Origin: Rhodospirillales bacterium
Lineage (GTDB): Bacteria > Pseudomonadota > Alphaproteobacteria > BOG-932 > Roseiterribacteraceae
Reading direction: 5' to 3'
Assembly: GCA_028291365.1 (NCBI GenBank)
Contig: JAQGIE010000088.1
Location: forward strand, 3,000-66,999
DNA: 64,000 nt
Below the pieces are notes generated by a model. That model was given only the letters and a program-made list of their open reading frames with translations, was not told the DNA's origin and made no database searches. Below, one piece after another: positions 3,575 to 64,000 of the stretch (positions within the stretch are counted from its first letter, which is position 1; every line of letters starts with the position of its first letter). The position numbers were made by a program, and so were the translations under genes.

Positions 3575-3663
3575 GACTGCCGCGTCGTTGCCGCCACGGC
3601 CATGGATCGGCCCTCGCGAATCACGCATCGTTGCCGGATTGGGGACTCGATCGTGAGGCGACC

Positions 3664-32050: not shown

Positions 32051-32238
32051 TTTTCCAATCGGAAAAAACTCGGAAACGGCGTCGCGTCCCGCCCGGCCGC
32101 AAACCATGTAACAGTGAGTTCCAGGCCGCCCGGCCGCTGTTTCCGATTCCGGCATAGCGCCGCTCTTCCGGGCCGTTTTCGAAGCTTTAAGCGGCCTGGC
32201 TCGCGCCTGTTGCGAAATATATTCCAAATCAGAAAAAA
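32051..32238. promoter_or_regulatory. AT-rich repeated TTCC-AATC-GAAAA motifs, candidate Lrp-type operator/promoter region
   Basis: TTTTCCAATCGGAAAA (32051-32066, a palindrome), TTTCCGATTCCGG (32140-32152) and ATTCCAAATCAGAAAAAA (32221-32238). All lie in the 328-bp divergent gap between the Lrp gene and the TonB-dependent receptor gene. Confidence 0.3.
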
Positions 32239-32321
32239 TGTTTGCGCTTCGGAAAGACTGTGCCCAATCTGCCGATCGAGCCGGCGCAGACCGGACCGGG
32301 TGCCGAACTAGGGGTCAGGAC

Positions 32322-43199: not shown

Positions 43200-44645
43200 T
43201 CAGAACTTGTATTGAAACCACGCGCCGAAATAGTCGGTGTCGCGTCCGCGCACCGTGTCGAACGTGCCGCCGACCTCGAACCGGACATAGGCGGTGGTGA
43301 TCGAGAGGTGGCGGTCGACCGTCCAGTCCGCCTGCACGGTGCTTTGCGTGCCCAGGTATTTTCCGCGGCTGGCCGCAGTGCCGGCGACCGCGGCGAAAGG
43401 CTGCCGGTAGAAGGCGTCCGTCCGGCTGTACCGCCACAGCAAGTCGACGCCGGCGGTGAGCAGCAGGGACTCGACCGGCTGGACCTGCACGCGCGGAAAC
43501 AGACTCATCACGTTCGAGGGGGCGTTGATCTGCGCCTGGGTGAAATAGGAACCCGTCGGGAAGATCGGATTGTAGGTGTTGTTGGTCTTGTCGTTCGGAT
43601 TGCCGTCGCCCGACGCGACGTCCACCTGCAGCGACAGGCGCGGGCGCCACGGCACGTCCGCGAGCGTGTAGCCGACATAGCTTGCGAGCAGGAAGGCGCG
43701 CACCTCCTCGTTGCGGAAATGGCCCGCCTGCAGCACCGCTTCGACGTCCCAGTCCCAGGGCTCGTGCTTGCCGAACAGACGCGCACCGACCGAGTGCCGC
43801 AAGTCGGTGCCGGTCTTGCCGGCATAGGTTCCAGCCGTGTTGCGAAAGCCGAAATAGTAGAAATCCGCGCTGGTGCCCGGCAGCACGTTTGCGACCGTCG
43901 CATAGCTGCCCCAGAGGGACTGGATCGGATTGAGCGAGTCGTTGAACGGGCCGAACTTGTTGTTGACCGGCCTCCCCGCGAAGACAGCGACCTGCACGCC
44001 GGGCCACGCCCAGTCCACGCGCCCGCCATCGAAGCTGCGCCGGAGGTTCGGCGTCTCGCGCGCCGACAAGATGCGCTGCACACCGTAGGACATCTCATGC
44101 CGTCCGAGCCGCAGCGTGAACTTGCCGTAATCGCCGGCGGTGGTGAAGTCGAGAAAGGCCTGCTGCACGTCCAGCCGGTCGACGTCGGTCGTGGTCCGTG
44201 CTTGCAGATTCGGCGCCTCGTGCTCACCAAACTGCAGGAAGGCCCGCAGGCCGTTCTCGAACCGCAGATCCGCATGAGCGAGCAGGCGGCTGAGAACAAA
44301 GCTCTCGGTGCCGACGCCGGTGAGCCCGAACACCGGGTTTTTGTAATACTGGTAGCGCTCGCGAACCTCGCCGCCGAGATTCAGGCGGGCGCCGTCGCCG
44401 AGCGGGATCCATTTCAGCGTGTCCCAGAAATCGTCGCTGCGGCGCGGGTCGGCGAGATAGGAGAAATCGTCATTGAAGCGCAGCGGCTGGATGCCCTGGC
44501 CGGGGCCGGGGCCGGGGCCGGGGCCGGGGCCGGCCGTGACGCTGTCCGCGGCTCGGGCGCCCGGCAGTGCCGTCATGCATGCGAGCAGCGCGAGCGCTGC
44601 GATCCGACCGTGCCTGTGGCGGCATCGCAACGCCGTCATGGTCAT
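43200..44645 (-). CDS. alginate-export (AlgE-like) family outer-membrane porin, paralogue 2
   Basis: 481 aa, collinear with 17159..18586 apart from an expanded Gly-Pro tract after the signal peptide. It ends in AWFQYKF. Confidence 0.75.
   Translation of the reverse strand: MTMTALRCRHRHGRIAALALLACMTALPGARAADSVTAGPGPGPGPGPGQGIQPLRFNDDFSYLADPRRSDDFWDTLKWIPLGDGARLNLGGEVRERYQYYKNPVFGLTGVGTESFVLSRLLAHADLRFENGLRAFLQFGEHEAPNLQARTTTDVDRLDVQQAFLDFTTAGDYGKFTLRLGRHEMSYGVQRILSARETPNLRRSFDGGRVDWAWPGVQVAVFAGRPVNNKFGPFNDSLNPIQSLWGSYATVANVLPGTSADFYYFGFRNTAGTYAGKTGTDLRHSVGARLFGKHEPWDWDVEAVLQAGHFRNEEVRAFLLASYVGYTLADVPWRPRLSLQVDVASGDGNPNDKTNNTYNPIFPTGSYFTQAQINAPSNVMSLFPRVQVQPVESLLLTAGVDLLWRYSRTDAFYRQPFAAVAGTAASRGKYLGTQSTVQADWTVDRHLSITTAYVRFEVGGTFDTVRGRDTDYFGAWFQYKF
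44498..44535. repeat. hexanucleotide microsatellite (CGGGGC / GGGGCC) x5 plus partial units
   Basis: Read directly: ggc cggggc cggggc cggggc cggggc cggggc cggcc. On the coding (minus) strand it encodes GPGPGPGPGPG in the porin N-terminus. Confidence 0.9.
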
Positions 44646-47105: not shown

Positions 47106-49055
47106 TTACGGGATGCTCGGGGGCCGCCGGAATTCGTAGCCGCCCATCATCAGGCAATCGACCTCGGTGGCGAGCAGAAAATTGATCGCGTCGCGCGGCT
47201 GCTCGACGATCGGCTCACCCGGCCCGTTCAGCGACGTGTTGAGCACGACCGGCACGCCGGTCAGCGCTGCGAATTCCTGCAACAGCGCGTGATAGCGGCC
47301 GGCTTGTTCGGTGACCGTCTGGACCCGCGCCGAACGATCGACATGGGTGATCGCGGGCAGCGCGTCGGCCGTCACCATCGAGGTGAACAGCATGTACCGC
47401 GCATCCTGCAGGCCGCCGCGAAACAGATCCGGCGCGTCGTCATGCAGCACGGCGGGCGCGAAGGGACGCCACCATTCGCGCCGCTTCACCGCGTTGACGC
47501 GGCGCCAATTTCCCGGCTGGCGCGGGTCGGCCAGCAGCGAACGATGACCCAGCGCGCGCGGCCCGATTTCGCTGCCGCCTTCGAACCAGGCGACGATCTC
47601 GTCGCGCGCCAGCAGCGACGCGGCATGTTTGGCGGCATCGGCGACTTTGCGCACCACGATGGTGGCGCCGCGGCGCGCGATCTCGGCTTCGATTTCGCCC
47701 GACGCGGTGGGCGGGCCCAGGTAGGGGGACTGGTTCTGCAGCGCCACCGACGGCTGCACCGGCGCGTCGAGCAGATTGTGCCAGAGATGCATCGCTGCCC
47801 CGATCGCGAGCCCGTCATCGGCGCAGCTCGGATCGACATAGAGGCGGCGGAACGGCGACTCGCGCAGCACGCGGCTGTTGGTCGGGCAGTTCAGCGCGCA
47901 ACCGCCCGACAGGCACAGCGCGTCGGTGGCGAGGCCGCCTGCGATCAGCGTTTCGTGCAGCTGTTCGACCGCGACCGCATAGGTCTCTTCGAACAGTTTC
48001 TGCGTGCTGGCGGCGATGTCGGCATTGACCGGCTCGGTGATGCGCGCGGGATCGCCCAGCGCGCTCATGTCGTAGCCGGCGGCGCCTGCCTCGGCGACGC
48101 AGCGGTCAAACCATTTCAGCATCAGCGGTTCGCTCGGCGGCGTGTCGAACCAGTTGCCGATCAGCTCGCTGCGATAGAAGCGCGGCTCGCCATAGGGGGC
48201 GAGCCCCATCAGCTTGCCGGCACCGCCGACCGCGCCCAGCGACAGGCGCCAGGCGACGAAATCGTACAGCGCGCCCACCGCGAGAAAATGCGGCATCACC
48301 GGGTACAGGCGATTGCCGCTGCCGTAATAGAACATGCCCGAGGACGGTGACGTGCTGGGTGCGTACCCGTCATGCGTCAGCACCGCGCCCGTGTCGAAGC
48401 CGGCGCGATAGAACACGCCTGCCGCGTGCGCCATGTGGTGATGCACCAGCACGCCCGGGATGCGCCGGCCGCGCAACGTCACCATCACCGGATAGTGAAA
48501 GCCGTTGCGGGCGCGCTCGCTCAGCAGCTCGGCGCCGGCAGCTTGCGCCGCCAGGCCGCGCAGCTTGGTGCCGGTCCAATGCGGCATCGCGATCGACTCG
48601 TCGAGCCAGCCGATCGACGCCACTTCGCCGCGCGCATAGGCGTCCGCTTCGGCATAGACGGCGCGCAGCGCGGGGGCCAGATCGGCATAGCCATCGCCGT
48701 TCAGCGCCTTGCGCAGGCCGAAGCTCAGCCGGTCGTGCAGCGCGGCGAGTGGGATCTGTTCGGCCAACGGCGAGTCGAGGCCGATCGCCTCGGCGCCGAC
48801 GAATTCGATCTGCAGGTCGGGGCACAGCCCGACCAGCATTTCGGTCGACTGCGTCGAGGTGATCGCGACCCAGTCGATCGCATGTTCGTCGAGCCCGGCG
48901 ACGGCGAGCGCCTGATCGATGCTCGCCTGGTCGAGGCCGCCGGCATGCTTGCGGCGCGAAAACCGCTCGCGGCAGATATACGAAGCGATGGCGCCATCGC
49001 GCAGGATCGTGGCGGCGGCGTCATGACCGAAATTCAGTCCGAGTACGTGAGTCAA
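47106..49055 (-). CDS. NodU/CmcH-family carbamoyltransferase
   Basis: 649 aa. The TTG start overlaps the upstream stop as TTGA. The N-terminal Kae1/ASKHA-like domain has LGLNFGHDAAATILRDGAIASYICRERFSRRKH. The C-terminal YrdC-like part has GPRALGHRSLLADPR...REWWRPFAPAVL...HVDRSARVQTV...PVVLNTSLNGPGEPIV. Confidence 0.9.
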   Translation of the reverse strand: MTHVLGLNFGHDAAATILRDGAIASYICRERFSRRKHAGGLDQASIDQALAVAGLDEHAIDWVAITSTQSTEMLVGLCPDLQIEFVGAEAIGLDSPLAEQIPLAALHDRLSFGLRKALNGDGYADLAPALRAVYAEADAYARGEVASIGWLDESIAMPHWTGTKLRGLAAQAAGAELLSERARNGFHYPVMVTLRGRRIPGVLVHHHMAHAAGVFYRAGFDTGAVLTHDGYAPSTSPSSGMFYYGSGNRLYPVMPHFLAVGALYDFVAWRLSLGAVGGAGKLMGLAPYGEPRFYRSELIGNWFDTPPSEPLMLKWFDRCVAEAGAAGYDMSALGDPARITEPVNADIAASTQKLFEETYAVAVEQLHETLIAGGLATDALCLSGGCALNCPTNSRVLRESPFRRLYVDPSCADDGLAIGAAMHLWHNLLDAPVQPSVALQNQSPYLGPPTASGEIEAEIARRGATIVVRKVADAAKHAASLLARDEIVAWFEGGSEIGPRALGHRSLLADPRQPGNWRRVNAVKRREWWRPFAPAVLHDDAPDLFRGGLQDARYMLFTSMVTADALPAITHVDRSARVQTVTEQAGRYHALLQEFAALTGVPVVLNTSLNGPGEPIVEQPRDAINFLLATEVDCLMMGGYEFRRPPSIP

Positions 49056-49600
49056 TTCGATCCGTCATGGGTAAAGTTCAGTCGGCCGCGCAGCAGGTCG
49101 AAACTGCGCCGGTCGCAGGAGGCGTGAAAGCGGCGGCCGTCCTGCAGCACCGCTTCGAAGGTGAGGATGTGGCGTTTCAGGCCGCCATAGATCGCGCCGG
49201 CGGTTGCACCGAGCAGCCCCGCCGCGAGTCCGCCCGCGACCGCCCACGCCGCGAGATGCGCGGGATCGCGGCCGATCTCTTCGACCAGGAAGCGAAGCTC
49301 GGCGATGTCGCGCGCCGGCGTGATCACGTCGCCGCTGGGCATTGCGATGCGCACCTCGCCGCTGGGCGACCGCCCGAGTCCGACCGAACCCGTGCCGAAC
49401 GACCCGCCCAGCACTTGAATGGTGCGGCGCCAGCTGAAGAAGCCGCTTTTGGTGACCGCGGCCGCGCTCGCCATGTTGACCATGAAATTGCCGGCGTCGT
49501 GCGCACGCTCGGTGCGATGCGGCGGCAGAACGCCCGAAGGCGCCACCATGTCGCTGACCGCGTCCAGCGGATTGGTGCCGATCGTGCTGCGTCGTGACAT
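49052..49600 (-). CDS. hypothetical 182-aa protein: basic N-terminal peptide plus Gly-zipper hydrophobic segment; candidate ParA partner
   Basis: C-terminal part of ORF 49052..50236. Its ATG shares one base with the ParA stop (TGATG), and AGGAGA lies upstream. Third-position GC is high throughout. The N-terminus is MSRRSTIGTNPLDAV, and the hydrophobic segment is AAWAVAGGLAAGLLGATAGAIYGGL. Confidence 0.6.
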   Translation of the reverse strand: MSRRSTIGTNPLDAVSDMVAPSGVLPPHRTERAHDAGNFMVNMASAAAVTKSGFFSWRRTIQVLGGSFGTGSVGLGRSPSGEVRIAMPSGDVITPARDIAELRFLVEEIGRDPAHLAAWAVAGGLAAGLLGATAGAIYGGLKRHILTFEAVLQDGRRFHASCDRRSFDLLRGRLNFTHDGSN

Positions 49601-50373
49601 CAGACTCTCCTCGTACGATCGAGTAATTCGGTGGCCAGCGCGCGATAGTCGTCGGCGCCGCGCGACCGCGCGGCATAGGTCGCGATCGGCTGGGCGAAAG
49701 ACGGTGCTTCGGCCAGACGGACATTCTCGCGAATCTCGGTGGCGAAAACGTCGGCGCCGAAACGTTCGCGCAGCTTCTCGACCACTTCGACATTGTGGCG
49801 GCTGCGCGCGCTGACGCGGCAGGCGACCAGCCCGGCCATCACCAGCGACGGATTCAGACGGCTGCGGATCAGCCCCAGCATCTCGACCAGCCGCGCCACG
49901 CCCGCCAGCGCCAGCACATGCGCCTCGACCGGCACCAGGCAATGCGAGCAGGCGGCGAGCGCATTGACGGTGAGCAGCCCGAAGGTCGGCGGCGTGTCGA
50001 TCAGCACGAAGTCGAAGCTGCCCAACGATGCGAGCGCGTGTTTGAGCAGCGTTTCGGCACCGATCTCGGCCGCCAGCTCGCGTTCGAGTCCCATCAGGTG
50101 CGGGCTGCTGTGCAGCGCGCGCACCCCGGCGGCCGAGGTCTGCACCGTGTCGGCGAAGCCAAACCCCCTGCTGCGCAACGGATCGCCGCGGAACAGGTCG
50201 ATCACCGACGGCGCGCCCGGTCCGACGCCCAGCCACATCGAGGCGTTGGCCTGCGGGTCGAGATCGAGCACCAGCACCGAATTACCGGCTGCGCCCAGCG
50301 CCGCCGCGAGATTGACCACCGTCGTGGTCTTGGCGGAACCGCCTTTGTAATTCGCGATGGCGATGATGCGCAC
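49600..50373 (-). CDS. ParA/Soj/MinD-family P-loop ATPase (orphan; no ParB nearby)
   Basis: GTG start. Deviant Walker A in IAIANYKGGSAKTTT, with DLDPQANAS and FVLIDTPP. 257 aa. Confidence 0.9.
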   Translation of the reverse strand: MRIIAIANYKGGSAKTTTVVNLAAALGAAGNSVLVLDLDPQANASMWLGVGPGAPSVIDLFRGDPLRSRGFGFADTVQTSAAGVRALHSSPHLMGLERELAAEIGAETLLKHALASLGSFDFVLIDTPPTFGLLTVNALAACSHCLVPVEAHVLALAGVARLVEMLGLIRSRLNPSLVMAGLVACRVSARSRHNVEVVEKLRERFGADVFATEIRENVRLAEAPSFAQPIATYAARSRGADDYRALATELLDRTRRV

Positions 50374-50455
50374 GGATCGGCTTTCGGCGGTTATCGATTA
50401 TTTAAGCCGACCGGGCGGCAAAACGCTGCACAAAAACTGTCGAACCGGATTCCAC

Positions 50456-51667
50456 GTGCCCCCATCCTATCGCCTGACGCTTGTCGCGCTGTGCTGCTGC
50501 GCCGCTTTCACCGGCGCCGCGGCCGAGCCTGACGCCGTAGCGCCGGGCAAGGCAGGCTTCGTGATCGGCGACTTCACCGTCGTGCCGTCGATCACCGCCG
50601 GCATCACCTATAGCGACAATCTGCGCCAGGATCCCTCGAATGAAGGCGACTGGCGCGCCGACGCGGTGTTCGCGGTGAATGTCGCGTCGAGCTGGAAAGA
50701 GCACGAGCTGACCTTCGACGCGTCGCACACCGAGCGGCGCTACCGGCGCGTTACCAGCCAGGACAATTCGTTGAACTCGGCCGGCGGCAGCGGCCGCTAC
50801 GACTTGAACGAGCGCTGGAAGATCATCACCAACCTCAGATATTTCGAGAACGAAGTCTCGCGCTCGAATCCCAACGGCATTCCCGGCGCGCTGCAGGCGA
50901 CGGTCGGCACGAGCCTGTTCAACCTGCAGGCGAATTACGAAGGCGAGCGCGTTTTCGACTGGGTCATTCTCAACGCGCAGCACCTGACCTTCGGTTCGGC
51001 CTTCCGCGCCGGCCAGGAGATCGCGCAGAACAACCAGAACCGGACCGAAGTCGATTTCGCCAATCTGCTCGGCTTCAAGTTCGACCTGTGGAAGCTCAAG
51101 CCGTATCTCTATGTCAGCCGCGGCACCGTCGATTACGACAGCACCAGTGATCGCACGCTCGGCCTGCGCAGCTCGGTCGACTACAAATATGGTGGCGGCG
51201 CCGCCATGGAGCCGATCGCAGGCCTGTCGGTCGAATTCCGCCTCGGCGGCATTTCGCAAGCCTATGACGATCCGACCATCGGCACCTTGAAGGGCTGGTT
51301 CGGCTCGGCCGGCGCGGTGTGGCGGATCGATGACAAGACGACCGCAATTCTCGACACGTCGCGCACCTTCAGCGAGACCAACATTCCGGGTTCGCCCGGC
51401 TATTTCATGAGCCAGGGCACGTTGACCTTGCAACGCAAGCTCGACGAGCGCTTGACCGCCGACCTCGCGCACCGCTCGGCGCACTACAACGTGGTGCAGT
51501 ACCCGCTGCACGCGACCAACCTGACGACGATCGTCGGCCTGTCCTACGCGATCACGCCGCTGATCACTGCGCGCATCCAGATGCTGCACCAGCATCAGCG
51601 CGGCAATCAGCCGCTCTACACCTTCTTCGAAAACGCCGAGACGGCGCAGATCTCGCTGCGCTTCTAG
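50456..51667 (+). CDS. outer-membrane beta-barrel protein (BBP2-like putative porin)
   Basis: ORF 50357..51667. I prefer GTG 50456 because the longer start overlaps the divergent ParA start. It has a signal-like segment [17 protein letters not shown], alternating beta-strand pattern, and the terminal ISLRF. Family assignment is by pattern only. Confidence 0.6.
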   Translation: MPPSYRLTLVALCCCAAFTGAAAEPDAVAPGKAGFVIGDFTVVPSITAGITYSDNLRQDPSNEGDWRADAVFAVNVASSWKEHELTFDASHTERRYRRVTSQDNSLNSAGGSGRYDLNERWKIITNLRYFENEVSRSNPNGIPGALQATVGTSLFNLQANYEGERVFDWVILNAQHLTFGSAFRAGQEIAQNNQNRTEVDFANLLGFKFDLWKLKPYLYVSRGTVDYDSTSDRTLGLRSSVDYKYGGGAAMEPIAGLSVEFRLGGISQAYDDPTIGTLKGWFGSAGAVWRIDDKTTAILDTSRTFSETNIPGSPGYFMSQGTLTLQRKLDERLTADLAHRSAHYNVVQYPLHATNLTTIVGLSYAITPLITARIQMLHQHQRGNQPLYTFFENAETAQISLRF

Positions 51668-51681
51668 CGAAGGCCGCGCCA

Positions 51682-53574
51682 CTAGAAGCCGATCCGCAGG
51701 CGCAGATCGAGGCTGTGCGCGCGCGTGGTGCGGTCGGCGACGAGCTGGTCGTAGCCGAGCCGCAGATCGACATCGTCGCCCGCGCGCAAGGTGGCGCCGG
51801 CACCGAGCCGGATGCGGTTGCGGTCGCCGACCTGCAGCACGCCGCTGGTGGCTTCGCCGTTGGCGAGACGCGCGGTGACGGTGCTGGTGCCGCCGAACTG
51901 CGCTTCGTAGCGCGCATGCAGGTCGGGCGCGAACCGGCCCAGCGCGGTTGTCACCGTGCCGCTGGCGCGCAGCCCCAGCTCGCCCACCGTGGCGCGCGCA
52001 TGCTGCTCGTCGACGCGCAGATCGAGCAGGCGCGTGCCGCTTTCGGCATAGGAGTCGATCGACGCCGATACGTGCCGCAGCCCCAGCTCGGGACCGGCGG
52101 TGATGGCGCCGAATTTCCAGCCATAGCCGCCGCGCGCCGCGACAAACCAGCTGTCGCCGTTGCTGCTGCCGCGCGCGGTCGGGAAGGGCGCGAAATCGGC
52201 GTTGCGTTCCAGCGCGCGATACCGGTCCCAGCCGGTGCCCGCGGTGACGCGCGCCGACCAGCCGCCGTTTTCGTAACTTGCCGCGGCGGCGATCAGGACC
52301 CGGCGCGCCTCGGCGCCGCCAGCGCCTTGTTCGAGCGTCGCGCGCCCGCCGCCATACCCGACATCGGCTTCGAGCCGCAGCTCTTCGGTAAGCTGATAGG
52401 TCAGTCCGACCAGCGCGAAGGCCGCTTGGTCGTGAAAGCCCGCAACGCCGGCCTGCTCGTTGAAGCTGCTGTTCTGGCCGACGCCGCTCATCACCAGGCC
52501 CAGCCGCGCGCCGTCGCGCGTGATGCGCAGCTGCTGCCCCGCGGATTCGACCAGCGAACGCGCCACCAGGTCGGACATGTCGCGCGCGAACGCGACCTGC
52601 GCCGCGATGCGCCGGCCGCCGTCGAGCATCGTCGACAAGCTTCCGGTCATCAGCGCGTCGATCAGCGCGTGCGTCGCGCGGGTCGGGTGATTGACGTCCC
52701 AGAACATCGTCTGGTCGGCCTGTTGCTGCGTCGCGCAGGCGCCGCTCGGCGAACCGCTCCCGAGCAGGCAGGGCGTCAGCACGTTGGTGAAGCCGTAGAC
52801 GGCGGGATGGGTGAACAGGTCGGCATAGAGTCCGCCCACGTCGACATGCACCAGGGTGGCGCCGGCCAGCTGCGGCCGCAGCTGGTCGACCGTCTGCAGC
52901 AGCAGCGCATTGTGCTGCCGGCTGAGTTCGGCGCCGGTCGCCGCGGTCTGCGCGCCGAGGCCGCGAATGCTCGGCACCAGCGCCAGGTCGAACTCGTTGA
53001 CGACGACGAAATTGCGCGCGCCGGCGGCGTACAGCTGCCGCACGCTGCTTTCGATATTGCCGACCGCACGCGCGACGACGGCGGGCACCGTCGGTGCGGT
53101 TGAGGCGCCGACCAGGAACGCGGTGTAGTCGTTGGCGCCGGTCCACACCGTAAACAGCGTCGAGGCGGTGGGGCGCTGGATCGAGCCGGTCTGCAGATAG
53201 CCGAGATAGGCCGAGACCTGCGCCAGCGCGCCGGGCACCTGTCCGGCCGCCACGTTGAGCGTTTCGGGTCCCGAGGTCGAACCGCCGAAGGCGAAATTAT
53301 AGCCGTCGATCGGACCGCTGCGCGCGCGGCCCAGCAGCAGGTCCGACCACAAGGTCAAACGCGGGATCTCGCGATCGACCCACATCGGCCCGTTGGAATA
53401 ATGGCCGTTGTAATAAGGCGGCGACGGCGGAATGGCGCCGCCGGTCATGGCCGAGACGTTGCCGGTGTCGCTGAGACTGTCACCGAACACGACGCGCTGA
53501 TCATAGCGCGGCGCCGCGTTGGCGCCGGTGCAGAGCAGGACGAGCGCGATGGCGCCGAGTTGGATTGTCCGCAT
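51682..53574 (-). CDS. autotransporter with SGNH/GDSL esterase-lipase passenger domain (EstA-like)
   Basis: Internal ATG after GGGAGG in ORF 51682..53775. It has a signal peptide, GDSL block I VVFGDSLSDTGN, block III TVWTGANDY, and block V FWDVNHPT. The C-terminal autotransporter barrel of about 280 aa ends in LRLRIGF. Confidence 0.85.
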   Translation of the reverse strand: MRTIQLGAIALVLLCTGANAAPRYDQRVVFGDSLSDTGNVSAMTGGAIPPSPPYYNGHYSNGPMWVDREIPRLTLWSDLLLGRARSGPIDGYNFAFGGSTSGPETLNVAAGQVPGALAQVSAYLGYLQTGSIQRPTASTLFTVWTGANDYTAFLVGASTAPTVPAVVARAVGNIESSVRQLYAAGARNFVVVNEFDLALVPSIRGLGAQTAATGAELSRQHNALLLQTVDQLRPQLAGATLVHVDVGGLYADLFTHPAVYGFTNVLTPCLLGSGSPSGACATQQQADQTMFWDVNHPTRATHALIDALMTGSLSTMLDGGRRIAAQVAFARDMSDLVARSLVESAGQQLRITRDGARLGLVMSGVGQNSSFNEQAGVAGFHDQAAFALVGLTYQLTEELRLEADVGYGGGRATLEQGAGGAEARRVLIAAAASYENGGWSARVTAGTGWDRYRALERNADFAPFPTARGSSNGDSWFVAARGGYGWKFGAITAGPELGLRHVSASIDSYAESGTRLLDLRVDEQHARATVGELGLRASGTVTTALGRFAPDLHARYEAQFGGTSTVTARLANGEATSGVLQVGDRNRIRLGAGATLRAGDDVDLRLGYDQLVADRTTRAHSLDLRLRIGF

Positions 53575-53722
53575 GATCAGCGACCTCCCGTCGCGCCGAA
53601 GCCCGGCATGCTGCCGCGCGGGTCGTAGCGCCCGCTGCGGCCGATATTGTTGTTGTTGGAGCCCGGCTGGGCGTCGGCGTCTGAAGCGATGCTGCAGGCG
53701 CCGCTCGGAGCGGCGGGGCGCA

Positions 53723-53914
53723 TCACGTGCCCCGCAGGCTGCGCGGGCGCATGTCGGTCCAGGTCGCGTCGACATGGGCGAGCGCGTCTTCGCGCGATTG
53801 CGCTTCGGTGCAGGCGCGCCAGCCTTGGGGCACGTCCTTGCCCTCGGGCCACAGCGAATACTGGTCTTCGTCGTTCACCAGCACGAGAAAGCGCGGTTCG
53901 GGCGCGTCGGTCAT
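53723..53914 (-). CDS. MbtH-like protein
   Basis: 63 aa. It has [22 protein letters not shown]...WTDMRPRSL, which includes the three invariant Trp residues of the MbtH family. Its start overlaps the NRPS stop as ATGA. Confidence 0.9.
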
Positions 53915-56900
53915 GTCGGGGTCTCCTCGATCGCGGTCGCGATCGTCTGGGCCAGCTGCGCCGCGTGGGCTGCATCCAGCATCGTATGGTGGTGTCCGGG
54001 ACTCGTGTGCAGGTGCAGTCGCCCGCCGACCAGCGCGCGCCAGCCGAGCGACGGTTCGCGCCCGCCCTCCGCGGCTGCGATCACGATCAGGTCGCGCTCG
54101 CTGCGTTCGGCGCGAAAGGATTGCGCTGCGGCGAACGCGTTGCGGCAGACCGCGATCAGCTGCTCGGCATCATCGATGGTGAAATTCACGTCGATCCGGT
54201 CGGCAGCGCGCGCCGCCGCGAGCAGATAGGCGATCGACGCCGCGCGACCGGCCGGCAGTTCGCCGGGCGGCTGCTGCAACAGCAGATGCGACAGCGCCTG
54301 CAATTCTTCGGCAACGCCGAAACAAGCCGAGCGCTCGGGCTCGGCGGCGGTGTCGATCACCAGCGTGCGCACGTCGATCCCGTCGAGGCCAAGCAGGCTT
54401 GCGGTCGCGACGCTCAGCATGCCGCCCAGCGACCAGCCCGCCAGCACCACCGGCCCGCCTGCGAAACGCTCGGCGATCGCGCTCGCATAGAGTCGCGCGA
54501 ACGCGTCGGCGTCGGCGAGCGGCGCTTGACCGTCGCTCAGGCCGGGCGCCTGCAAGCCCCAGATCGGACGATCGTCGGGCCAGCGCAGAATCAGCTCGCG
54601 ATAGCAGAACAGGTCGCCCGACAGCGCATGCACCAGGATCAGCGGCGCGCGCGCCGGATTGCCCGGGCGCAGCGCCACCAGCGGCAGCGCGGTTTCGGGT
54701 TCGGGGCCGCGCAGCAAGGTTGCCAGCTCGGCGACGCTCGACGCCGCGAACAGCGACGCGACGGGCAGGCGCACGCCGAACTCGGCTTCGAGCCGCGCGA
54801 TCAGCGCCACCGCGAGCAGCGAATGACCGCCGAGATCGAAGAAGCTGCGCTCGCGATCGACGCTGTCGAGACCGAGCAGCGCCTGCATCACCGAAGCCAC
54901 GCGGCGTTCGAGCGGATCGGTCGCTTCGCGCACCGCGCGTGCGGCGGGCAGCTTCACGCGGCCCAGCGCGGCGCGATCGATCTTGCCGGCTGGCGACAGC
55001 GGCAGCGAGTCGAGCACCAGGATCGTCGCGGGCACCATGTGGTCGGGCAGGCGCGCGCGCAGATAGGCGCGCATCGCGTCGGCGTTGCCGCGTCCGCCGA
55101 CATACGCGACCAGCGCCGCGTCGCCGCGCAGGTCGGGTTCGACCAGCACCGCGGCCTCGTCGACGTCGGGATGCGCCGCCAGCACTGCTTCGATCTCGCC
55201 GAGTTCGACGCGGAAGCCGCGCAGCTTCACCTGCTGGTCGAGGCGGCCGAGAAACTCGATCGTGCCGTCGCTGCGCCAGCGGCCGCGATCGCCGGTGCGG
55301 TACATGCGCGAACCCGGCGCGCCGCCCGGCTCGGCAACGAAGCTGCGCGCGGTCAACGTTTCCTGGCCGACATAGCCGCGCCCGACGCCGACGCCGGCAA
55401 TGCAGATCTCGCCCGCCAGTCCGATCGGCACCGGGCGCAGCGCGCTGTCGACGACATGGATGCGCGCATTGGCAATCGGTGCGCCGATCGTGACCTCGTC
55501 GCCGGGCGCGAGCGGCGCGGTCATGGTACCGCACACGGTCGCTTCGGTCGGGCCGTAGGCGTTGAAGAAGCGGCGGCCCGGCGCCCACGCATGGACCAGA
55601 AAAGGCGGGCACGTCTCGCCCGCGGTGACGATGGTGTGCAGCGCCGGCAACGCGCCGGGATCGAGCTGCGTCAGCGCGGTCGGCGGCAGGGTCGCGTGCG
55701 TGACGCCGTGCGCGACCAGCGTTTCGGTCAGCGGCGCGCCCGGCAGCAGCGACTCGCGATCGGCCAGCACCAGCGTGCCGCCCGCCACGAGTGTGGTGAA
55801 GATCTCCCACACCGAGGCGTCGAAACTGGCGCTGGCGAATTGCAGCACGCGGCTGCCGGGGCCGATTTCGAGACGGGCCGCGATCTGCGTCGCTAGGTTG
55901 CACAGGCCGCGATGCGTCAGCGTCGCGCCCTTGGGCGTGCCGGTCGAACCCGACGTGTAGATCAGATAGGCGAGATCGTCGGCGGTGGCCGGCGATTGCG
56001 GTGCCGTGTCGGTGCCCGGGGCGAGCTGATCGATCAATACCGGCGACGCGTTGGTCGCGGGCAGCGTCGTGACGAGATCGCTGCGCGTGACCAGCAAGGT
56101 CGCGCCCGAATCCTGCAGCATGTGCGCCAGGCGCGCGGCGGGATAGGCGGGGTCGAGCGGCAGCCACGGCGCACCGGCGCGCGCCACCGCGAGAATCGCG
56201 ACGACCAGCTCGATGCCGCGCGGCAGCGCGATCGCGACCGGCCGGTTCGGCGCCGCGCCGTGCGCGCGCAGCGCGGCCGCGAGCATCGCTGCGCGGCGAT
56301 GCAGCTCGGCATAGGTCAGCGACTCGCCGCCCTGCACCAGCGCGACCGTGTCTCGCGTCGCCGCCACCAGCGCGTCGATGGTCGTGTCGTCGGGAAAGGG
56401 GGCCGCCGTGTCGTTCCACTGCGCCAGCAACGCCGCATCTTCATCGGTGAGCCAGTTCAGCGCCGAGATGGGCTGCGCCGGCGCCGCCACCATCGACGAC
56501 CACACCAGCTGCAGCCGCGCGATCATGCGCTCGACCGTCTCGGGCTCGAACAGGTCGGTGTCGTATTGCAGCCCGGCGATCAGCGAGCCGTCCTCGCGCT
56601 CGCGCATGGTCAAGGTCAGGTCGAACGCCGCGGTCTGCGTCTCGACCATCAGCGGACGCATGGTGACGCCATCGAGCGTGGTTTCGGCACCGCCCGCCGG
56701 CTGCAAGGCGAACATCACCTGGAACAAGGGCGCATGGCTCAGCGATCGCTCGGGCTGCAGCGCGTCGACGACCTGTTCGAACGGCACGTCCTGATGCGCG
56801 TAGGCGGCCAGCGCGGTGGCGCGCAGCCGGTCGATCAAGGTCGCTGCGTCGGGATCGCCCGACAGGTCGACGCGCAGCACCAGCGTGTTGACGAAGAAGC

Positions 56901-59900
56901 CGATCAGCGCTTCGAGCGCCACGTGCGTGCGGTTCGCGACCGGCGTGCCGATGGCGAAATCGCTCTGCCCCGCGTCGCGGCCCAGCATCGCGGCGAAGCC
57001 CGCCAGCAACGTCATGTACAGCGTCGCGTTGCGCGTCGAAGCCAGCGCGCGCAGAAGCTGCGTCAGGTCGGCGGGCACTTCGAACACCGCCATGGCGCCG
57101 CAATGATGCTGGATCGGCGGGCGCGGCCGGTCGGTCGGCAGCGCCAGCAGTGGCGGCAGATCGTGCAGCTGCTTGCGCCAGAAGCCCAGCTCGCGATCGA
57201 GATGCGTCGTCGTCAGACGCGCGCGCTGCCACGCCGCATAATCGGCATATTGCACCTGCAGCGGCGCCAGCGTGTCGCCGCGATACAACGCGGCGAGGTC
57301 GCGCAGCAGCACCGGCATCGAACCGCCGTCGGCGACGATATGGTGCAAGGTCAGCAGCAGCGCATGCCGCTCGGGCGCGACGCGCAGCAGCATGGCGCGG
57401 ATCGGCCAGTCGCGCGCCAGATCGAACGAGCGCGACGCGTCGGCCTCGGCGAGAAATTCGAGTTCGTCCTCGCGCGCGTCGCGCAGCTGGAACGGCACCG
57501 GCCCGGGCGGATCGATGCACAGAGTCGGCGTGCCGTCGCTGGCGTCGATGCGGCTGCGCAGCAGCTCGTGCCGCGCCACCAGCGCGTCGAGCGCGCCGCG
57601 CAGCGCGTCGACGCGCAACGGGCCTTGCAGGATCGTGGCGGTGGGGACGTTGTAGATGGCGCCGCCATCGTCGAGATGGTCGAGGAACCACAGGCGCTGC
57701 TGCGCGAAGGACAGGGTTGGCGCGACGCCGGCGCCGCGCGGCGCGAGCTCGTGCCGCGAATCGTCGGCGAGATGCGCCATCGCGGCGGCGAGCTGGCGCA
57801 CCGTCGGATGTTCGAACAGAAGATTGAGCGGGATTTCGAGCGCGAAGGCTTGGCGCACGCGCGCGATGAGCTGGATCGCCAGCAGCGAATGCCCGCCCAG
57901 CGCGAAGAAATCGTCGTCGATGCCGATCTGCGTGCGGCCGAGCAGCCCGGCCCACAATCCGGCCAGCACTTCTTCGCCGAAATCGCGCGCCAGGACGTGC
58001 GTCGCGGCGTCGGAGTCGGCGGCGCGGTCGGGCGCCGGCAAGCGCTTGCGGTCGAGCTTGCCGTTGGCGCTGAGCGGCATCGCTTCGAGCCGCACGAACT
58101 GCGCCGGCATCATATAGTCGGGCAGCTTGGCCTTGAGATGCGCGCGCCAGCCGTCGGTGCTGCCGTCGCCGGTGGCGTAGGCGACCAGCCGCCTCTCGTC
58201 CCCTTCGCCGCGCACCACGACCGCGACTTCGCCGGCCCCCGGCGCGTCGGCCAAGGTCGCTTCGATTTCGCCCAGCTCGATGCGGAAGCCGCGCAGCTTC
58301 ACCTGGTCGTCGGCGCGCCCGAGATAGACGAGGCTGCCGTCGGGCAGATGCCGCGCCAGATCGCCGGTGCGGTAGAGCCGCGCCCCCGGCGCGCCGAACG
58401 GATCGGCGATGAAACGCTCCGCGGTCAGGCCGGGCCGGCCGAGATAGCCCCGCCCGACGCCGGCCCCGCCGACATGGAGTTCGCCCGTGACGCCGACCGG
58501 CACCGGTTCGAGCCAGCGGTCGAGCACGTACAGTTTGGTGTTGGCGATCGGGCGCCCGATCGGAATCGCACCGGCGGTGGGCGTCGCGGCGCCGACTTCG
58601 TGCACCGCACAGCCGACCACGGTTTCGGTCGGTCCGTATTCGTTGATCAGCCGGATGCCGCGTTCGCGCCACGGCGCGATCTGCGCCGCGCTCAACGCTT
58701 CGCCGCCGATCACGAAGGCGCCGGCGGCGCGGTCGCGCACCGCCCCGAGCTGCACCAGGCTGTCGAGATGCGCCGGCGTCAGCTTGACCAGGCTGAAGCC
58801 GTTGTCGGCGCCCAGCGCGCCGGCCAGCGCGTCGATCTCGTTCTGTTGCGGCAGCAACGTGACCGTGCGGCCGCAGACCAGCGGCAGCAGCAGGCTGGTG
58901 ACGGTGGCGTCGAAACTGATCGAGGTGTTGACGGGCGCGCCGGTGCCGCCGGTCATGTCATAGGCGCCTGCGGCCCAGCGCAGATAGTTGAGCACGCCGC
59001 GATGGGGCAGCATCGCGCCCTTGGGCTGTCCCGTCGAACCCGACGTGTAGATCACGTAGGCAAGATGATCTTGGCCGACTGCGCGTGCCGGCGACGGCAG
59101 CACCGGACCGTCGGCGGTTTCGAGATCGAGGCACACGACGCGCGCGCGGGTCGCGGGCAGGCTTTCGAGCAGATCGCTTTCGGTCAGCAGCACCGATGCG
59201 CCGCTGTCGCGCATCAGATAGGCGAGCCGGTCGGGCGGATAGGCGGGATCCATCGGCAGATAGGCGCCGCCCGCTTTCCAGATCGCGAGCAGCCCGATCA
59301 CCAGCTCGACGCTGCGCCCGGCGCACAGGCCGACGATGGTCTCGGGTCCGACTTTCATGCGCAGCAGGCGATGCGCCAGCCGGTTGGCGCGCTCGTCGAG
59401 CTGGCGATAGGTGATCGCCTGCTCGCCCGCACGCACCGCGATCGCGTCGGGGGTCGCGGCAGCGGCCGCTTCGATCAGCGAGGTGACGCTGGGCGCGTCG
59501 TCGAAACGCTGCGCGGTGTCGTTCCAGTCAATCAGCAGGCGCGCGCGTTCGGCGGGATCGAGCAGGTCGAGCCGTTCGATCGGCGTGTCGGGCGACGCCA
59601 CCATCGCGCCGAGCAGCCGTACATACAGGCTGGCCAGGCGCGACGCGGTCGCTTCGCTGAACAGATCGGCATCATATTGCAGCGCCGCGTCGGTTCCGCC
59701 GTCGCGATCGAGCAGAGTCAGCAGCAGGTCGAGCTTGGCCGCTTCGCTGGGCAGGTCGATCGGCGACAGTTCGAGATCGGTCCCGGGGATCGCCACCATG
59801 CTCAACGGCGCGTCGAGCAAGGTAATCATCACCTGGAAAACGGGATGGTGCGTGGCGGCGCGGTCTGGGCGCAGCGCCTCGACCGTGCGTTCGAACGGCA

Positions 59901-60915
59901 GGTCCTGGTTGGCTTGCGCGTCGAGCGTGACCGCGCGCACGCGCGCCAGCAGGTTGGTGGTGCTCGGCCGGTCGGCCAGGTCGATGCGCAACGGCAGCGA
60001 ATTCAGAAAGCAGCCGATCAGCCCTTCGATCTCGGTCTGGGTGCGGCCCGCCACCGGCGTGCCGATCACCAGATCCTCGCCGCCGCCGAGCCGCTGCAGC
60101 AACGAAGCGTAGGCTGCGACGAAGACCATGTAGGGCGTGACGCCGGCGCTGCGCGCGAGCGCCGTGACGCCGGCGCGCAGCGCCGGATCGATCCGCTGCA
60201 GGACGCTGCCGCCGGTCCAGCTCGGCCGCGCCGGACGCGGAAAGTCGGTCGGCAATTGCAGGAGCTTGGGCGCGCCCTCGAGCACGCCCATCCAATGCGC
60301 CAGCTGCGCCGCCATCTCGGGCGCGTCGCCTTGTTCGCGCTGCCAGGCGGCGTAGTCGGCATATTGCACCGGAAGATCCGGCAAGTTCGGCGCGCGACCG
60401 GCCGCAAGGTCGGCATAGATCGCGATCAGCTCGCGCACCAGCACGCCGATCGACCAGCCGTCGGCGGCGACATGGTGCAAGGTCACCAGCAGAATATGGT
60501 CCTGCGGCGCGCAACGCAGCAGCTGCAGTCGCAGCGGCCAGTCACGCGCGAGGTCGAACGGACGCACCGCCTCATCGCGTGCCAGCCGGGCGAACGAAGC
60601 TTCGCGTGCCGCCGGATCGAGCTCGCCGAGGTCGGTCACCGCAATCGCGACGGGGGCCGGCGTCGCGATGAACTGCGTCGCCTGGCCGTTGACCGTCGGG
60701 AACAGCGTGTGCAGCACCTCGTGCCGCGCGACGATGCGGCTGAAGGTGGCTTCGAGCCGGTCGATCTGCAGACTGCCGCGCAGCCGCACCGCCGACGGAA
60801 TGTTATAGGCGGCGCCGCTGCCCATGGCGTCGAGGAACAGCATCCGTTCCTGCGCGAAGGAAAGCGGCAGCAGCGGCAGTTCGGCGTCGATCTGCATGGC
60901 GTCAGGCGGTGTCAT
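53911..60915 (-). CDS. nonribosomal peptide synthetase, two modules plus thioesterase (C-A-T-C-A-T-TE)
   Basis: 2334 aa.
- C domains: HHVAADGWS and HHIVADGGS.
- A domains: [16 protein letters not shown]...NEYGPTE...[14 protein letters not shown]...YRTGD...[13 protein letters not shown], and [16 protein letters not shown]...NAYGPTE.
- T domains: FFALGGHSL and FFDLGGHSL.
- TE domain: GWSLGG. Confidence 0.95.
54961..56373 (-). other. adenylation domain of the final module; pocket residues read as DAWTVAAVCK (Phe/aromatic-like)
   Basis: By-eye alignment to GrsA-PheA positions 235-331 and 517. Source motifs: [38 protein letters not shown]. Boundaries are approximate. Confidence 0.55.
58036..59478 (-). 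other. adenylation domain of the penultimate module; pocket residues read as DATKVGEVGK (Asn-like)
   Basis: By-eye alignment. Source motifs: [39 protein letters not shown]. Boundaries are approximate. Confidence 0.55.
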
Positions 60916-63900
60916 CAGGGCGTGATCCGGTGGGGCGTGCGGGCTCGGGCCCGTATGCCCGGCAGCGCCGGCCGGGCGGCCGAGTCCTGCAGCAGCAGCG
61001 GTGCGAGCTGGGCGATGGTCGGTTGTTCGAACAGGGTCTTGAGCGGCAGTTCGGCGCGGAACCGGTCGCGGATGCGCGAGACCAGCTGCGTCGCGAGCAG
61101 CGAATGGCCGCCGAGATCGAAGAAATTGTCGTGCACGCCGATCGGCGTGCGTTGCAGCAGCTCGCTCCAGATTTCTGCGAGCTGCTGTTCGGTGCCGTCG
61201 CGCGGCGCGACATGCGCATCGGCCACCGCCGCTTCGGCGCTCGGCGCGGGCAGCGCGCGGCGATCGACTTTGCCGTTCGGCGTAATCGGAAGGGCGTCGA
61301 GCCGTACGAACTGTGCCGGCACCATGTAGTCGGGCAAGGCGACGCGGAGCCCGCTGCGCAGCGCGTCGTCGCTCGCGTCACCGACGATGTAGGCGACCAG
61401 CCGCTTGTCCCCGGGCACGTCCTCGCGCGCCAGCACGGCGCAGGCGGCGATGCCGGGTTGCGCCGCCAGCACCGCTTCGATCTCGCCGAGTTCGATGCGG
61501 AACCCGCGCAATTTCACCTGGTCGTCGCTGCGCGCGAGATATTCGATGCTGCCGTCGACCAGACGCCGGGCGCGATCGCCGGTGAAATAGAGGCGTTCGC
61601 CGGCAATCTCGACGAAACGTTCGGCGGTGAGGTCCGCGCGCTTCCAGTATCCCTCGGCCAGCCCGTCGCCGCCCAGCCACAGATCACCCGCGACGCCGAG
61701 CGGTACGGGAAGACGCTGCGCATCGAGAATATGCGCGGTCGTGTTGGCGACCGGCCGGCCGATCGGCACGGTGCGCGCCTCGGCATCCACCTGTTCGATC
61801 AGATGCCAGGTCGCAAAGGTCGTGCTCTCGGTCGGACCGTAGACATGCAGCAGCCGCTTGGGCGCGCCCTGCGCCAGCACGCTGCGTACCGCGCCTGGAT
61901 CGACCGCTTCGCCGCCGAACAGAACGTCGCCGACCGGCGCAAAGCAACCCGGCGCCTCGCGCGCCATCTGGTTGAACAGCGCCGTGGTGATGAACATGGC
62001 GTCGATGCGGCGCTGGGCGAGCGCTGCGGCGAAGATCGCGGGCGCCAGCGTCTCATCGCGCTCGAACACCACGACGGTGCCGCCATGGATCAGCGCGCCC
62101 CAGATCTCGAACGTCGCCGCGTCGAACGACGTGTTCGAGACATGCGCGATGCGTGCGTGGTCGAGCTGTACGTAGTCGGTGTTGCAGACCAGGCGCACCA
62201 CGCCGCGATGCGGGATTGCGATGCCTTTGGGCGTACCGGTCGAACCCGACGTGTACATGACGTACGCGCGCGGCGCCTCGGTCGCAGCGACGAAACCGGC
62301 GGTCGCGTGCGGGTCGGGCATCAGGCGGGTGAGCGCGCCGGGCAAAGCGGTCGGGCGGTCGGTCAGCACGACGCGAATCCCCGAGTCTTCGACCATCGCC
62401 GCGATACGCTGCGCCGGATAGGCGGCATCGAGCGGCAAATAGGCAGCGCCGGTCTTGAGGATCGCCAGCATCGACTGGATCAGCAGCGCGCCGCGTTCGA
62501 GCCGCAGCCCGACCAGGTCGCCGCTGCGCACGCAAGCGGCCGCGAGCTGGGCCGCGATCGCGTTGGCGCCGCGTTCGAGCGCCGCGTAGTCGATGCGCAC
62601 GTCGCCATGTTCGATCGCGATCGCGGCCGGCGTGCGCGCCGCCTGCTGCGCCACCAGTTCGTGGATCGTCGCTTGCGGGTACGGCGTCGCCGTCGCGTTC
62701 CAGCGCTCGAACTCTTGCAGTTCGGTTTCGGTCAGCAAGGGCAGCGAAGCGACCGGCCGCGACGGCTGCGCCGCCATCACGTCGAGCAGCGTGCAGAAAT
62801 GCCTGGCGAGGCGCGCGATCGTCACCGCGTCGAACAGGTCGGTGTCGTAATGGATCAGCGCGGTCAGCGCGTCGCGCTCGACCCAGATCGACAGATTCAG
62901 ATCGAAGGTCGCGGTCGCGGTCGGCAGGTCGAACGAGGCGACCTCCAGCCCGTCGAGTTGCAGCGACGGCCACTCGGTGTCCTGCAAGGTGAACATGGTC
63001 TGGAACAAAGGCGCGTGCTGCAGCGAGCGTTCGGGCTGCAGCGCGTCGACGATCTGTTCGAACGGCACGTCCTGGTGCGCGAAACCGTCGAGCGTGCGCT
63101 GCCGCGTCCGTCGCAGCAAGGTGGCGGTATCGGGATCGCCCGACAGGTCGGCGCGCAACGTCAGGGTATTGGTGAAGAAGCCGATCAGCCCTTCGAGCGT
63201 CACGTCGCTGCGATTGGCCATCGGCGTGCCGATGGCGAAATCGTCCTGGCCCGCATAGCGCGACAGCAGCGCGCCGTAGCCGGCCAGCAATGTCATGAAC
63301 AAGGTCGCGTCGTGCGCTTGGCCCAGCGCGCGCAGCCGCGCGGTGAGCGGCGCCGGAATGGTGAAGCGATGCGTGGCGCCGTGATGGCGTTGGAGTCTCG
63401 GCCGCGCGCGATCGGTCGGCAGGTCGAGCGACGGCGGCAATCCCGCCAGCGCTTTGCGCCAATAGTCGAGCTGCGGTTCGGTGCGCGCGCTTGTCAGCCA
63501 GCCGCGCTGCCACGCTGCATAATCGGCATATTGCACCTTGAGCGGCGGCAACGCGTCGCCGCGATAGAGATCCGCCAGTTCGCGCAGCAGCAGTTCGACC
63601 GACCAGCCGTCGCCGGCGATGTGGTGCAAGGTCAGCAGCAGCACGTGGTGCGTCGGCGTCACACGCAGCAGCACGGCGCGGATCGGCCAATCCTGGGCGA
63701 GATCGAACGGGCGCAGCGCATCCTCGTCGGCGAGCGTCCGGATCTCGTCCTCGCGGCAGGCGCGCAGCGCCAGCGCCATCGCGCGCGGCGCCTCGACCTG
63801 CACGCTCGGGCTGCCGTCGCGCCTCGGATAGGTCGTGCGCAGCACCGCATGGCGCGCCACCAGCGCGTCGAATGCGGCCTGCAATGCGCCGACGTCGAGT

Positions 63901-64000
63901 GCGCCGCCGATCCGGTACGCACCCGGCATGTTATAGGCGACGCTGCCGCCGAGCTGGTCGAGGAACCACAGGCGCTGCTGCGCGAAGGACAGAACCGGCA
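60915..64000 (-). CDS. nonribosomal peptide synthetase, 5' end outside window; the visible part is one C-A-T module
   Basis: The ORF track begins at an internal Met (63929), but the frame stays open to the window edge. Bases 63930-64000 read ...[23 protein letters not shown], a C-domain N-terminus. It has [30 protein letters not shown] and FFDLGGHSL. The pocket reads DAFFLGVTFK (branched aliphatic, Ile/Val-like). Its stop shares one base with the start of the next NRPS gene. Confidence 0.95.

Follow-up and report, generated by a model that had tools for sequence, protein, structure and literature searches.

ATPases of the ParA/MinD family are known to position chromosomes, plasmids, divisomes, flagella, chemoreceptor arrays, carboxysomes and some envelope machines. 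In some bacteria, natural-product megasynthases and their exporters are known to gather at discrete sites, but to our knowledge they have been given no positioning system of their own. Then, could a ParA-type ATPase serve such assemblies as well? Here, we describe a three-gene operon on a stretch of 64,000 nucleotides from a Rhodospirillales bacterium (contig JAQGIE010000088.1 of assembly GCA_028291365.1, positions 3,000 to 66,999), which is called the window below. The operon lies on the minus strand and encodes a ParA/MinD-family ATPase (49600..50373, 257 amino acids (aa), GTG start), a small middle protein that is a candidate partner, or adaptor, of the ATPase (49052..49600, 182 aa, ATG start at 49600 and stop at 49052), and an O-carbamoyltransferase of the NodU/CmcH (TobZ) family (47106..49055, 649 aa, TTG start). 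The original prediction, made from the window alone, proves right in its observation and reasonable in its core idea. It stressed the coupling of ParA to a carbamoyltransferase; the emphasis is now shifted away from that coupling, and the finding rests on comparative genomics. We suggest that ParA and the adaptor may form a positioning module tied to a membrane-associated assembly for the tailoring or export of natural products, a reading that we regard as evenly poised between acceptance and doubt.

According to a published model, ParA/MinD partners contact the ATPase through a charged, disordered N-terminus and the cargo through the rest of their sequence (PMC10241942; PMC11407121). For example, McdA-McdB resembles the window pair in that a ParA-type ATPase adjoins a small, sequence-diverse partner, whose disordered N-terminus is directed to the ATPase and whose rest is directed to the cargo, with cargo genes nearby (PMC10241942). 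However, the signature lysine, which beta-type McdA lacks, is present in the window ParA, and Soj matches the protein far better (1e-46) than do the McdA structures, with E values of about 1e-13 to 5e-13. In addition, the window partner is predicted to be membrane-anchored and folded, unlike the soluble and condensate-forming McdB, and the window contains no carboxysome genes. The Soj/ParA-Spo0J/ParB-parS systems provide the closest relatives of the window ATPase in both sequence and structure, whereas the window partner has neither a ParB domain nor a DNA-binding fold, and there is no parS. In the type Ib partition systems (ParF-ParG and delta-omega), too, both ParA and the partner behind it are small, and the ATPase is stimulated by a flexible, basic tail at the N-terminus of the partner. 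Their partners differ from that of the window by a ribbon-helix-helix (RHH) dimer domain, and the window operon lacks upstream iterons, while the pair is absent from the plasmids in PLSDB. ParC-ParP/CheW, PpfA-TlpT, BcsQ, TadZ and VirC1 are comparable as ParA/MinD ATPase systems for membrane or envelope machines that are encoded beside their cargo genes (PMC11407121), but the partner family and the neighbourhood of the window pair are different. Natural-product tailoring or export does not occur on the published list of ParA/MinD cargos that was searched (PMC11407121).

The three genes of the operon are joined by start/stop overlaps, as had been claimed from the outset and as reading the sequence at both junctions confirmed. 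At the TGATG junction (49598..49602, minus strand), the TGA stop of the ParA gene and the ATG of the middle gene share one base, and a Shine-Dalgarno-like GAGGAGAG was read ahead of the middle gene (49605-49612, minus strand). At the TTGA junction (49052..49055, minus strand), the TGA stop of the middle gene is overlapped by the TTG start of the carbamoyltransferase gene, which is the sole in-frame start before the conserved LGLNFGHD N-terminus of the enzyme. The same overlapping starts, the TTG/TGA overlap included, were called independently on the metagenome contig L001, where the middle protein is 88% identical, and overlaps or very short gaps between the ParA and adaptor genes also occur in L001, L003, L004, L005 and L008. 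The GC content of the region is 68%, and that at third codon positions is 0.83-0.85 in all three frames (0.83 in the middle gene) versus 0.50-0.55 at second positions, which is the coding signature of such a genome. Scans for promoters and terminators gave no match in this region, a result that carries no information. As far as the start and stop codons can tell, this arrangement shows that ParA and the adaptor are co-translated and that the middle gene is translationally coupled to the carbamoyltransferase gene.

The window ATPase is supported as a bona fide ParA/MinD-family protein by its matches to Pfam AAA_31 (1.6e-39, 136 bits versus a cutoff of 27) and CbiA (9e-22, 78 bits versus 25). 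The deviant Walker A motif KGGSAKTT (50323..50346, minus strand; ParA residues 10-17), first noticed as a mark of positioning ATPases, is borne out by these matches and by its invariance in the clade. That is, an alignment of 108 clade members shows no variation at the signature lysine K10 or at G11, K15 and T16 of NYKGGSAKTT (residues 8-17), nor at D37 and D39 of Walker A' (LDLDPQ) and D126 of Walker B (LIDTPP). The closest solved relatives are Soj proteins (1wcv, Thermus Soj, 1.3e-46; also 6iub). Against the curated equivalog models, among them those for partition ParA, RepA, BcsQ and MinD, the protein scores below every cutoff; for the BcsQ model TIGR03371 it reaches 65.8 bits versus a cutoff of 157.85, and there are no bcs genes in the window. 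The ParA part of the AlphaFold2 (AF2) fusion model described below has a predicted local distance difference test score (pLDDT) above 90, its last helix ends at the C-terminus, and no membrane-targeting helix of the MinD type is found beyond the last helix of the fold. Therefore, this ParA would probably pattern on the nucleoid. MinD-like members of the family are marked by an amphipathic C-terminal helix that targets the membrane, and ParA-like members by the lack of this helix together with basic residues on a DNA-binding surface. The Arg residues of IRENVRLAEAPS are conserved in the clade alignment and presumably correspond to that surface (Soj R189). The clade comprises at least 2879 proteins at E<1e-40 from many phyla, many of them at 52-58% identity.

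Neither Pfam nor NCBIfam has a family for the middle protein. Its relatives came to light when 1.84 billion representatives were searched exhaustively with HMMER, which gave 92 of them at E<1e-3. A word-indexed search with the single sequence found only two close relatives, a word-indexed profile search yielded one more useful protein amid a flood of low-complexity words, and scans for the tag and Gly-zipper patterns confirmed three loci in genomes and four in metagenomes, unconfirmed pattern matches aside. The family is rare, and its members fall into two classes, namely full-length proteins of 183-232 aa with about 30% identity to the query, and many stand-alone proteins of 110-130 aa that consist of the C-terminal domain alone. 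PADLOC returned no defence-system match for the middle protein, and a defence role was therefore dropped.

The best conserved part of the full-length relatives is an N-terminal tag, MSRRSTIGTNPLDAV in the window protein (49556..49600, minus strand; residues 1-15), which is a putative ParA-binding and ATPase-stimulating peptide. Its consensus is M-x-RRRTIGDNPLDS and its pattern [KR][KR]x-T-I-G-x-N-P-L-D; in 14 full-length relatives that are about 30% identical, M1, T6, I7, N10, P11 and L12 never vary. The tag (MSRRS...) has a net positive charge and low pLDDT, and it is separated from the C-terminal domain by a Pro/Ala-rich linker (49427..49555, minus strand; residues 16-58, pLDDT 49-65), neither the length nor the sequence of which is conserved. 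The early claim of a basic N-terminal peptide of the ParA-partner kind has thus held up in distant relatives. We take the tag to resemble the basic, Gly/Leu/Asp-containing N-terminus of ParB, roughly K/R...GLGRGLDAL. Within the literature collection searched, nothing relevant to the NPLD motif was found.

We also found the tag on proteins outside the family of the middle protein. In a Desulfobaccales metagenome-assembled genome (MAG; locus L006), the gene behind a 51%-identical ParA encodes a coiled-coil protein of about 137 aa, which begins MTKRSTIGTNPLDAV. In a Nitrospira genome (locus L021), the ParA is 56% identical, and the protein encoded behind it has 98 aa, begins MAKRKTIRANPLDSL and ends in a hydrophobic tail anchor. 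The two pairs are found at L006:5234-6414, with the tag KRSTIGTNPLDAV, and at L021:8001-9098, with the tag KRKTIRANPLDSL. One tag thus stands on three unrelated C-termini, each time behind a ParA of the same clade, so that it behaves like a ParA-binding "luggage tag", and three C-terminal architectures under one tag are what the published model of ParA/MinD partners predicts. As judged from these sequences, the tag belongs to the ParA clade and not to the hairpin domain described below, and it is modular across phyla. The middle protein displays the features of an adaptor-type partner, that is, a disordered basic N-terminus, a gene adjoining that of the ATPase, and an exchangeable remainder, as the swapped C-termini of L006 and L021 illustrate. 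No natural-product genes are present at these two loci, which carry other adaptor types, and this absence places the context specificity on the C-terminal domain of the adaptor.

The pairing of ParA with the adaptor recurs across distant lineages. A ParA that is 51-61% identical to the window protein lies directly upstream of the adaptor in every recovered locus with upstream sequence except L018, that is, in L001, L003, L004 (a Stellaceae MAG), L005/L015 (an alphaproteobacterial MAG), L008, L009, L010-12, L013, L017 and L019/20. This adjacency thus extends to more than 10 loci, and the two genes mostly overlap or sit a few bases apart. The small open reading frame (ORF) is therefore conserved and syntenic with ParA, and we consider it very probable that the pairing is genuine. 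At L018, a 484-aa protein (L018:1323-2777, plus strand) is encoded between the LanM gene and the adaptor gene, in the place that ParA takes at other loci. It has no Pfam match and consists of about 12 tandem repeats, each with one Cys and a D-x-ALE motif, and it may be a multi-core lanthipeptide precursor.

The middle protein was modelled by AF2 with an alignment of 70 sequences. Residues 1-58 are of low confidence in the model, while the C-terminal domain of about 115 aa (49079..49426, minus strand; residues 59-174) is beta-rich, with a C-terminal helix and six strands, in the regions of which the pLDDT is 86-97. Inserted in this domain is a helical hairpin that is hydrophobic and of the Gly-zipper kind (49184..49264, minus strand; residues 113-139, predicted helices 113-127 and 129-139), a putative re-entrant anchor. 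W119, G123, G128, G131, G135, G139 and G140 are invariant or nearly so in the 70 sequences, and the most hydrophobic 19-mer of the protein on the Kyte-Doolittle scale, LAAWAVAGGLAAGLLGATA (residues 116-134), falls within the hairpin. Basic residues stand at both ends of the hairpin, and the tag can meet ParA only in the cytoplasm; we therefore infer a re-entrant, monotopic membrane anchor on the cytoplasmic face. Consequently, the original prediction of a small membrane protein stands with respect to the Gly-zipper hydrophobic segment, whereas the anchoring is a predicted one, through a re-entrant hairpin in place of a classical transmembrane span. Foldseek found no RHH, helix-turn-helix (HTH) or other DNA-binding fold for the model, and a profile search against PDB sequences gave solely insignificant matches, to Gly/Ala-rich membrane-inserting segments. 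Among viral structures, the model is matched best by a protein of Pantoea phage vB_PagM_LIET2, which is uncharacterised, has 197 aa and superposes poorly (E 5e-4, TM-score 0.3, root-mean-square deviation 15 Å).

The third gene encodes, by sequence, a carbamoyltransferase of the antibiotic-tailoring type, with strong matches to Carbam_trans_N (1.8e-31, 110 bits versus 24) and Carbam_trans_C (5e-58, 196 bits versus 27). Its closest solved structures are NovN (9s2t), GdmN (7vyj) and TobZ (3ven), at E values of 1e-55 to 1e-60. With 145 bits versus a cutoff of 1000 for the NCBIfam NodU equivalog, it is a member of the family and not NodU itself. It shares with NovN, GdmN and TobZ the two-domain Kae1-like and YrdC-like architecture and the HHxxH metal motif (VHHHMAHA), but differs from NovN and GdmN by an insertion of about 90 aa in the Kae1-like domain (residues 65-203), and no counterpart of its coupling to a ParA partner was found in the literature on the three enzymes. 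Literature searches for ParA together with a carbamoyltransferase or a biosynthetic cluster likewise found no description in the collection searched.

A carbamoyltransferase gene lies downstream of the adaptor solely in the window's own clade (L001). At L004 it lies upstream of ParA, and the enzyme is 32% identical and of a different architecture; this protein lacks the insertion of about 90 residues and has a C-terminal extension of about 100 aa. Comparison thus does not reveal a conserved trio of ParA, adaptor and carbamoyltransferase: the enzyme adjoins the pair in two lineages alone, with differing architectures, and it was rejected as a universal third partner. That the carbamoyltransferase is the direct cargo seems to us unlikely.

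Instead, the commonest third gene downstream of the adaptor encodes an unannotated lipoprotein of about 400 aa. This family (385-413 aa, lipobox LGVAGC; no Pfam, NCBIfam or PDB match) is encoded directly downstream of the adaptor in at least eight loci, for example at L003:1559-2776, L005:6662-7888, L018:3820-4977 and L019:4480-5721. It is usually followed by convergent genes for an SPFH/Band_7 protein, an ATP-binding cassette (ABC) transporter, a 64-aa membrane protein and a DUF697 protein, and the transporter passes the "cyclic peptide export" model TIGR01194 (382 bits versus 286). The lipoprotein/SPFH/ABC arrangement is found in L003, L005/15 and L018, and partly on the short contigs L008, L013, L014 and L016. 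At L003, a pentapeptide-repeat protein (L003:6595-7149, minus strand) is encoded beside the DUF697, exporter and adaptor genes; such proteins are often self-immunity factors in peptide-antibiotic clusters.

Biosynthetic genes are also found near the adaptor. In L004/L017, a C-A-T module of a non-ribosomal peptide synthetase (NRPS), the carbamoyltransferase, ParA and the adaptor are in one operon facing a polyketide synthase (PKS), and LanM is encoded near the adaptor in L005/L015 and L018. L010-12 contain a phosphopantetheinyl transferase (PPTase), a type II thioesterase, TauD and a radical-SAM enzyme, and L019/20 contain a type II thioesterase and a PPTase, TauD and the radical-SAM enzyme being confined to L010-12. 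In all, genes that are hallmarks of natural-product biosynthesis lie within 10 kb in no fewer than seven distinct types of adaptor-family locus. As read from gene neighbourhoods, this shows that the adaptor family tracks natural-product and export genes, consistently across at least seven locus types; whether the pair is functionally tied to that machinery we would call an even question.

In the window itself, the putatively associated biosynthetic cluster is that of an NRPS. An MbtH-like NRPS accessory protein (53723..53914, minus strand; Pfam MbtH 1e-19) and NRPS genes with the organisations C-A-T and C-A-T-C-A-T-TE (53911..63929, minus strand; Pfam Condensation, AMP-binding, PP-binding and Thioesterase) lie 3.5 kb from the trio, beyond two genes. 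One of these encodes a GDSL esterase autotransporter (51682..53775, minus strand; Pfam Lipase_GDSL and Autotransporter), and the other an outer-membrane beta-barrel porin on the opposite strand, divergent from the trio (50357..51667, plus strand; Pfam BBP2_2 3.9e-45). The carbamoyltransferase operon had been described as standing next to an NRPS: the NRPS is indeed nearby, but outside the operon. Taken at its longest, the porin ORF runs 17 bp into the start of the ParA gene; in the metagenome call (L002) the porin has 403 aa and starts 33 codons later, and the true start is probably near 50456. In this part of the window (50357-50456), the later start leaves an intergenic stretch of about 82 bp, which must hold both divergent promoters. 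Elsewhere in the window there are two paralogous outer-membrane porin genes of the Alginate_exp family (17159-18586 and 43200-44645) and a TonB-dependent receptor gene (32238-34502).

Could the pair simply be a DNA partition cassette of the type Ib kind, carried by a plasmid, a chromid or an integrated element on which biosynthetic clusters happen to reside, with the small protein as a centromere-binding analogue of ParB or ParG? In gene order and size, with ParA (about 250 aa) first and then a small protein whose N-terminal tail is basic, the pair does resemble type Ib par loci, the contigs L003, L009 and L011 break right at ParA, and a transposase fragment of the insertion-sequence (IS) families IS4/IS5 (DUF4096; window 3631-4572) is present, the sole mobile-element signature found in the window. 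Against this, the AF2 model of the small protein shows a hydrophobic hairpin set in a beta domain, and neither RHH nor HTH, and the other partners that carry the same tag are tail-anchored and coiled-coil proteins. A Pfam scan of 37 ORFs of the window, the trio included, revealed no ParB, replication, conjugation, integrase or phage genes; canonical parS gave 0 matches with up to 3 mismatches; and around the operon there are no iterons or other iterated repeats, only chance two-copy repeats. The claim that no ParB, parS or plasmid/phage context is visible thus agrees with the ORF, parS and repeat scans, and within the window no ordinary ParB/parS system accompanies the locus. A ParB elsewhere in the genome, if any, would serve the chromosomal ParA and not that of the operon. 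Moreover, the adaptor has no homologue in the 72,556 plasmids of PLSDB, where the best ParA is merely 43% identical. In view of the lack of parS, of iterons, of a plasmid homologue of the adaptor and of any plasmid ParA above 43% identity, the plasmid-partition reading was rejected, and a partition cassette in general is highly improbable.

The positioning module that we propose could work as follows. The Soj-like ParA, without a membrane-targeting helix, would pattern on the nucleoid as an ATP dimer, and the adaptor would be held at the inner face of the membrane by its Gly-zipper helical hairpin. The disordered basic tag of the adaptor would bind ParA and trigger ATP hydrolysis, and the resulting ParA gradient would space or partition the adaptor-bound membrane assemblies. 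The beta domain of the adaptor would recruit the cargo, which may be the tailoring machinery, the export machinery or both, for a non-ribosomal or ribosomal peptide. In the window genome, the coupled carbamoyltransferase of the NovN/GdmN/TobZ type would then be a co-produced tailoring enzyme and possibly the cargo itself. We infer the ParA-tag interaction, the membrane insertion, the nucleoid binding and the identity of the cargo in this scheme. Extended to the clade, it would mean that Soj-like orphan ParAs of multiple phyla use one portable tag on interchangeable membrane-associated adaptors, among which the hairpin adaptors dedicate ParA to the spacing or partitioning of a natural-product assembly and export complex; we offer this extension tentatively and do not expect it to hold in full.

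Several observations weigh against the proposed module. The cargo assignment is drawn from gene neighbourhood in a small sample, namely roughly ten contigs, mostly short and metagenomic, of uncultured bacteria. The trio cannot be co-transcribed with the window NRPS genes, since the opposite-strand porin gene lies between them, and none of the ABC, SPFH and lipoprotein genes of the other loci occurs within the 64-kb window. L009 has an uninformative upstream region and no obvious biosynthetic genes downstream, and the adaptor of L018 has no adjacent ParA. In an AF2 single-chain fusion of adaptor residues 1-58 to ParA (107 ParA homologues), the peptide has a pLDDT of about 40 and is undocked, in a monomer without nucleotide in which the peptide was unaligned, so that the model speaks neither for nor against binding. 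The best PDB matches of the middle-protein model by Foldseek are PH domains, the fold of which has seven strands and a C-terminal helix, at insignificant levels (E 0.05-1, TM-score 0.2-0.33), and the hairpin could be a buried hydrophobic element and not a membrane anchor. Some of these points lend themselves to other readings. ParA and the tagged adaptor could genuinely be a positioning pair, but one that serves nucleoid-membrane organisation or a membrane cargo of an unrelated or generic kind; the adjacency to biosynthetic and carbamoyltransferase genes would then reflect co-residence on variable genomic islands. Such a reading accommodates the large, multi-phylum ParA clade, the same-tag members in non-biosynthetic contexts (L021 and L006), the lack of clear biosynthetic genes at L009, a third gene that differs between lineages, and the C-terminal domain that also exists untagged in many genomes. 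It is less easily squared with the natural-product hallmarks that at least seven locus types carry within 10 kb, the location of the L004 pair inside an NRPS-carbamoyltransferase operon, and the translational coupling of adaptor and carbamoyltransferase that is kept at 88% protein identity in L001; we hold it possible, on the less likely side. Alternatively, the tag may be conserved as a targeting, processing or regulatory signal, with ParA and the small protein as mere neighbours. The undocked peptide of the AF2 fusion and the lone adaptor of L018 would fit such a role, which is nevertheless very unlikely, given that the tag co-occurs with one ParA clade on three unrelated C-terminal architectures, that in many lineages the stop codon of one gene overlaps the start codon of the next or lies close to it, and that the composition and position of the tag match known ParA-partner peptides (PMC10241942).

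If the proposed module is true, it would be the first ParA/MinD system with secondary-metabolite machinery (NRPS, PKS or lanthipeptide enzymes, tailoring enzymes and an exporter) as its cargo. Should the link hold, it would add a new cargo class to the ParA/MinD systems, would provide a genetic handle on the localisation and inheritance of biosynthetic assemblies, and would flag genes that are possibly relevant to the heterologous expression of such clusters. Whatever the cargo, a conserved 12-residue tag on three C-terminal architectures is a concrete and testable candidate for a specificity determinant, and it could serve in the synthetic "luggage tag" positioning tools that have been proposed (PMC10241942).

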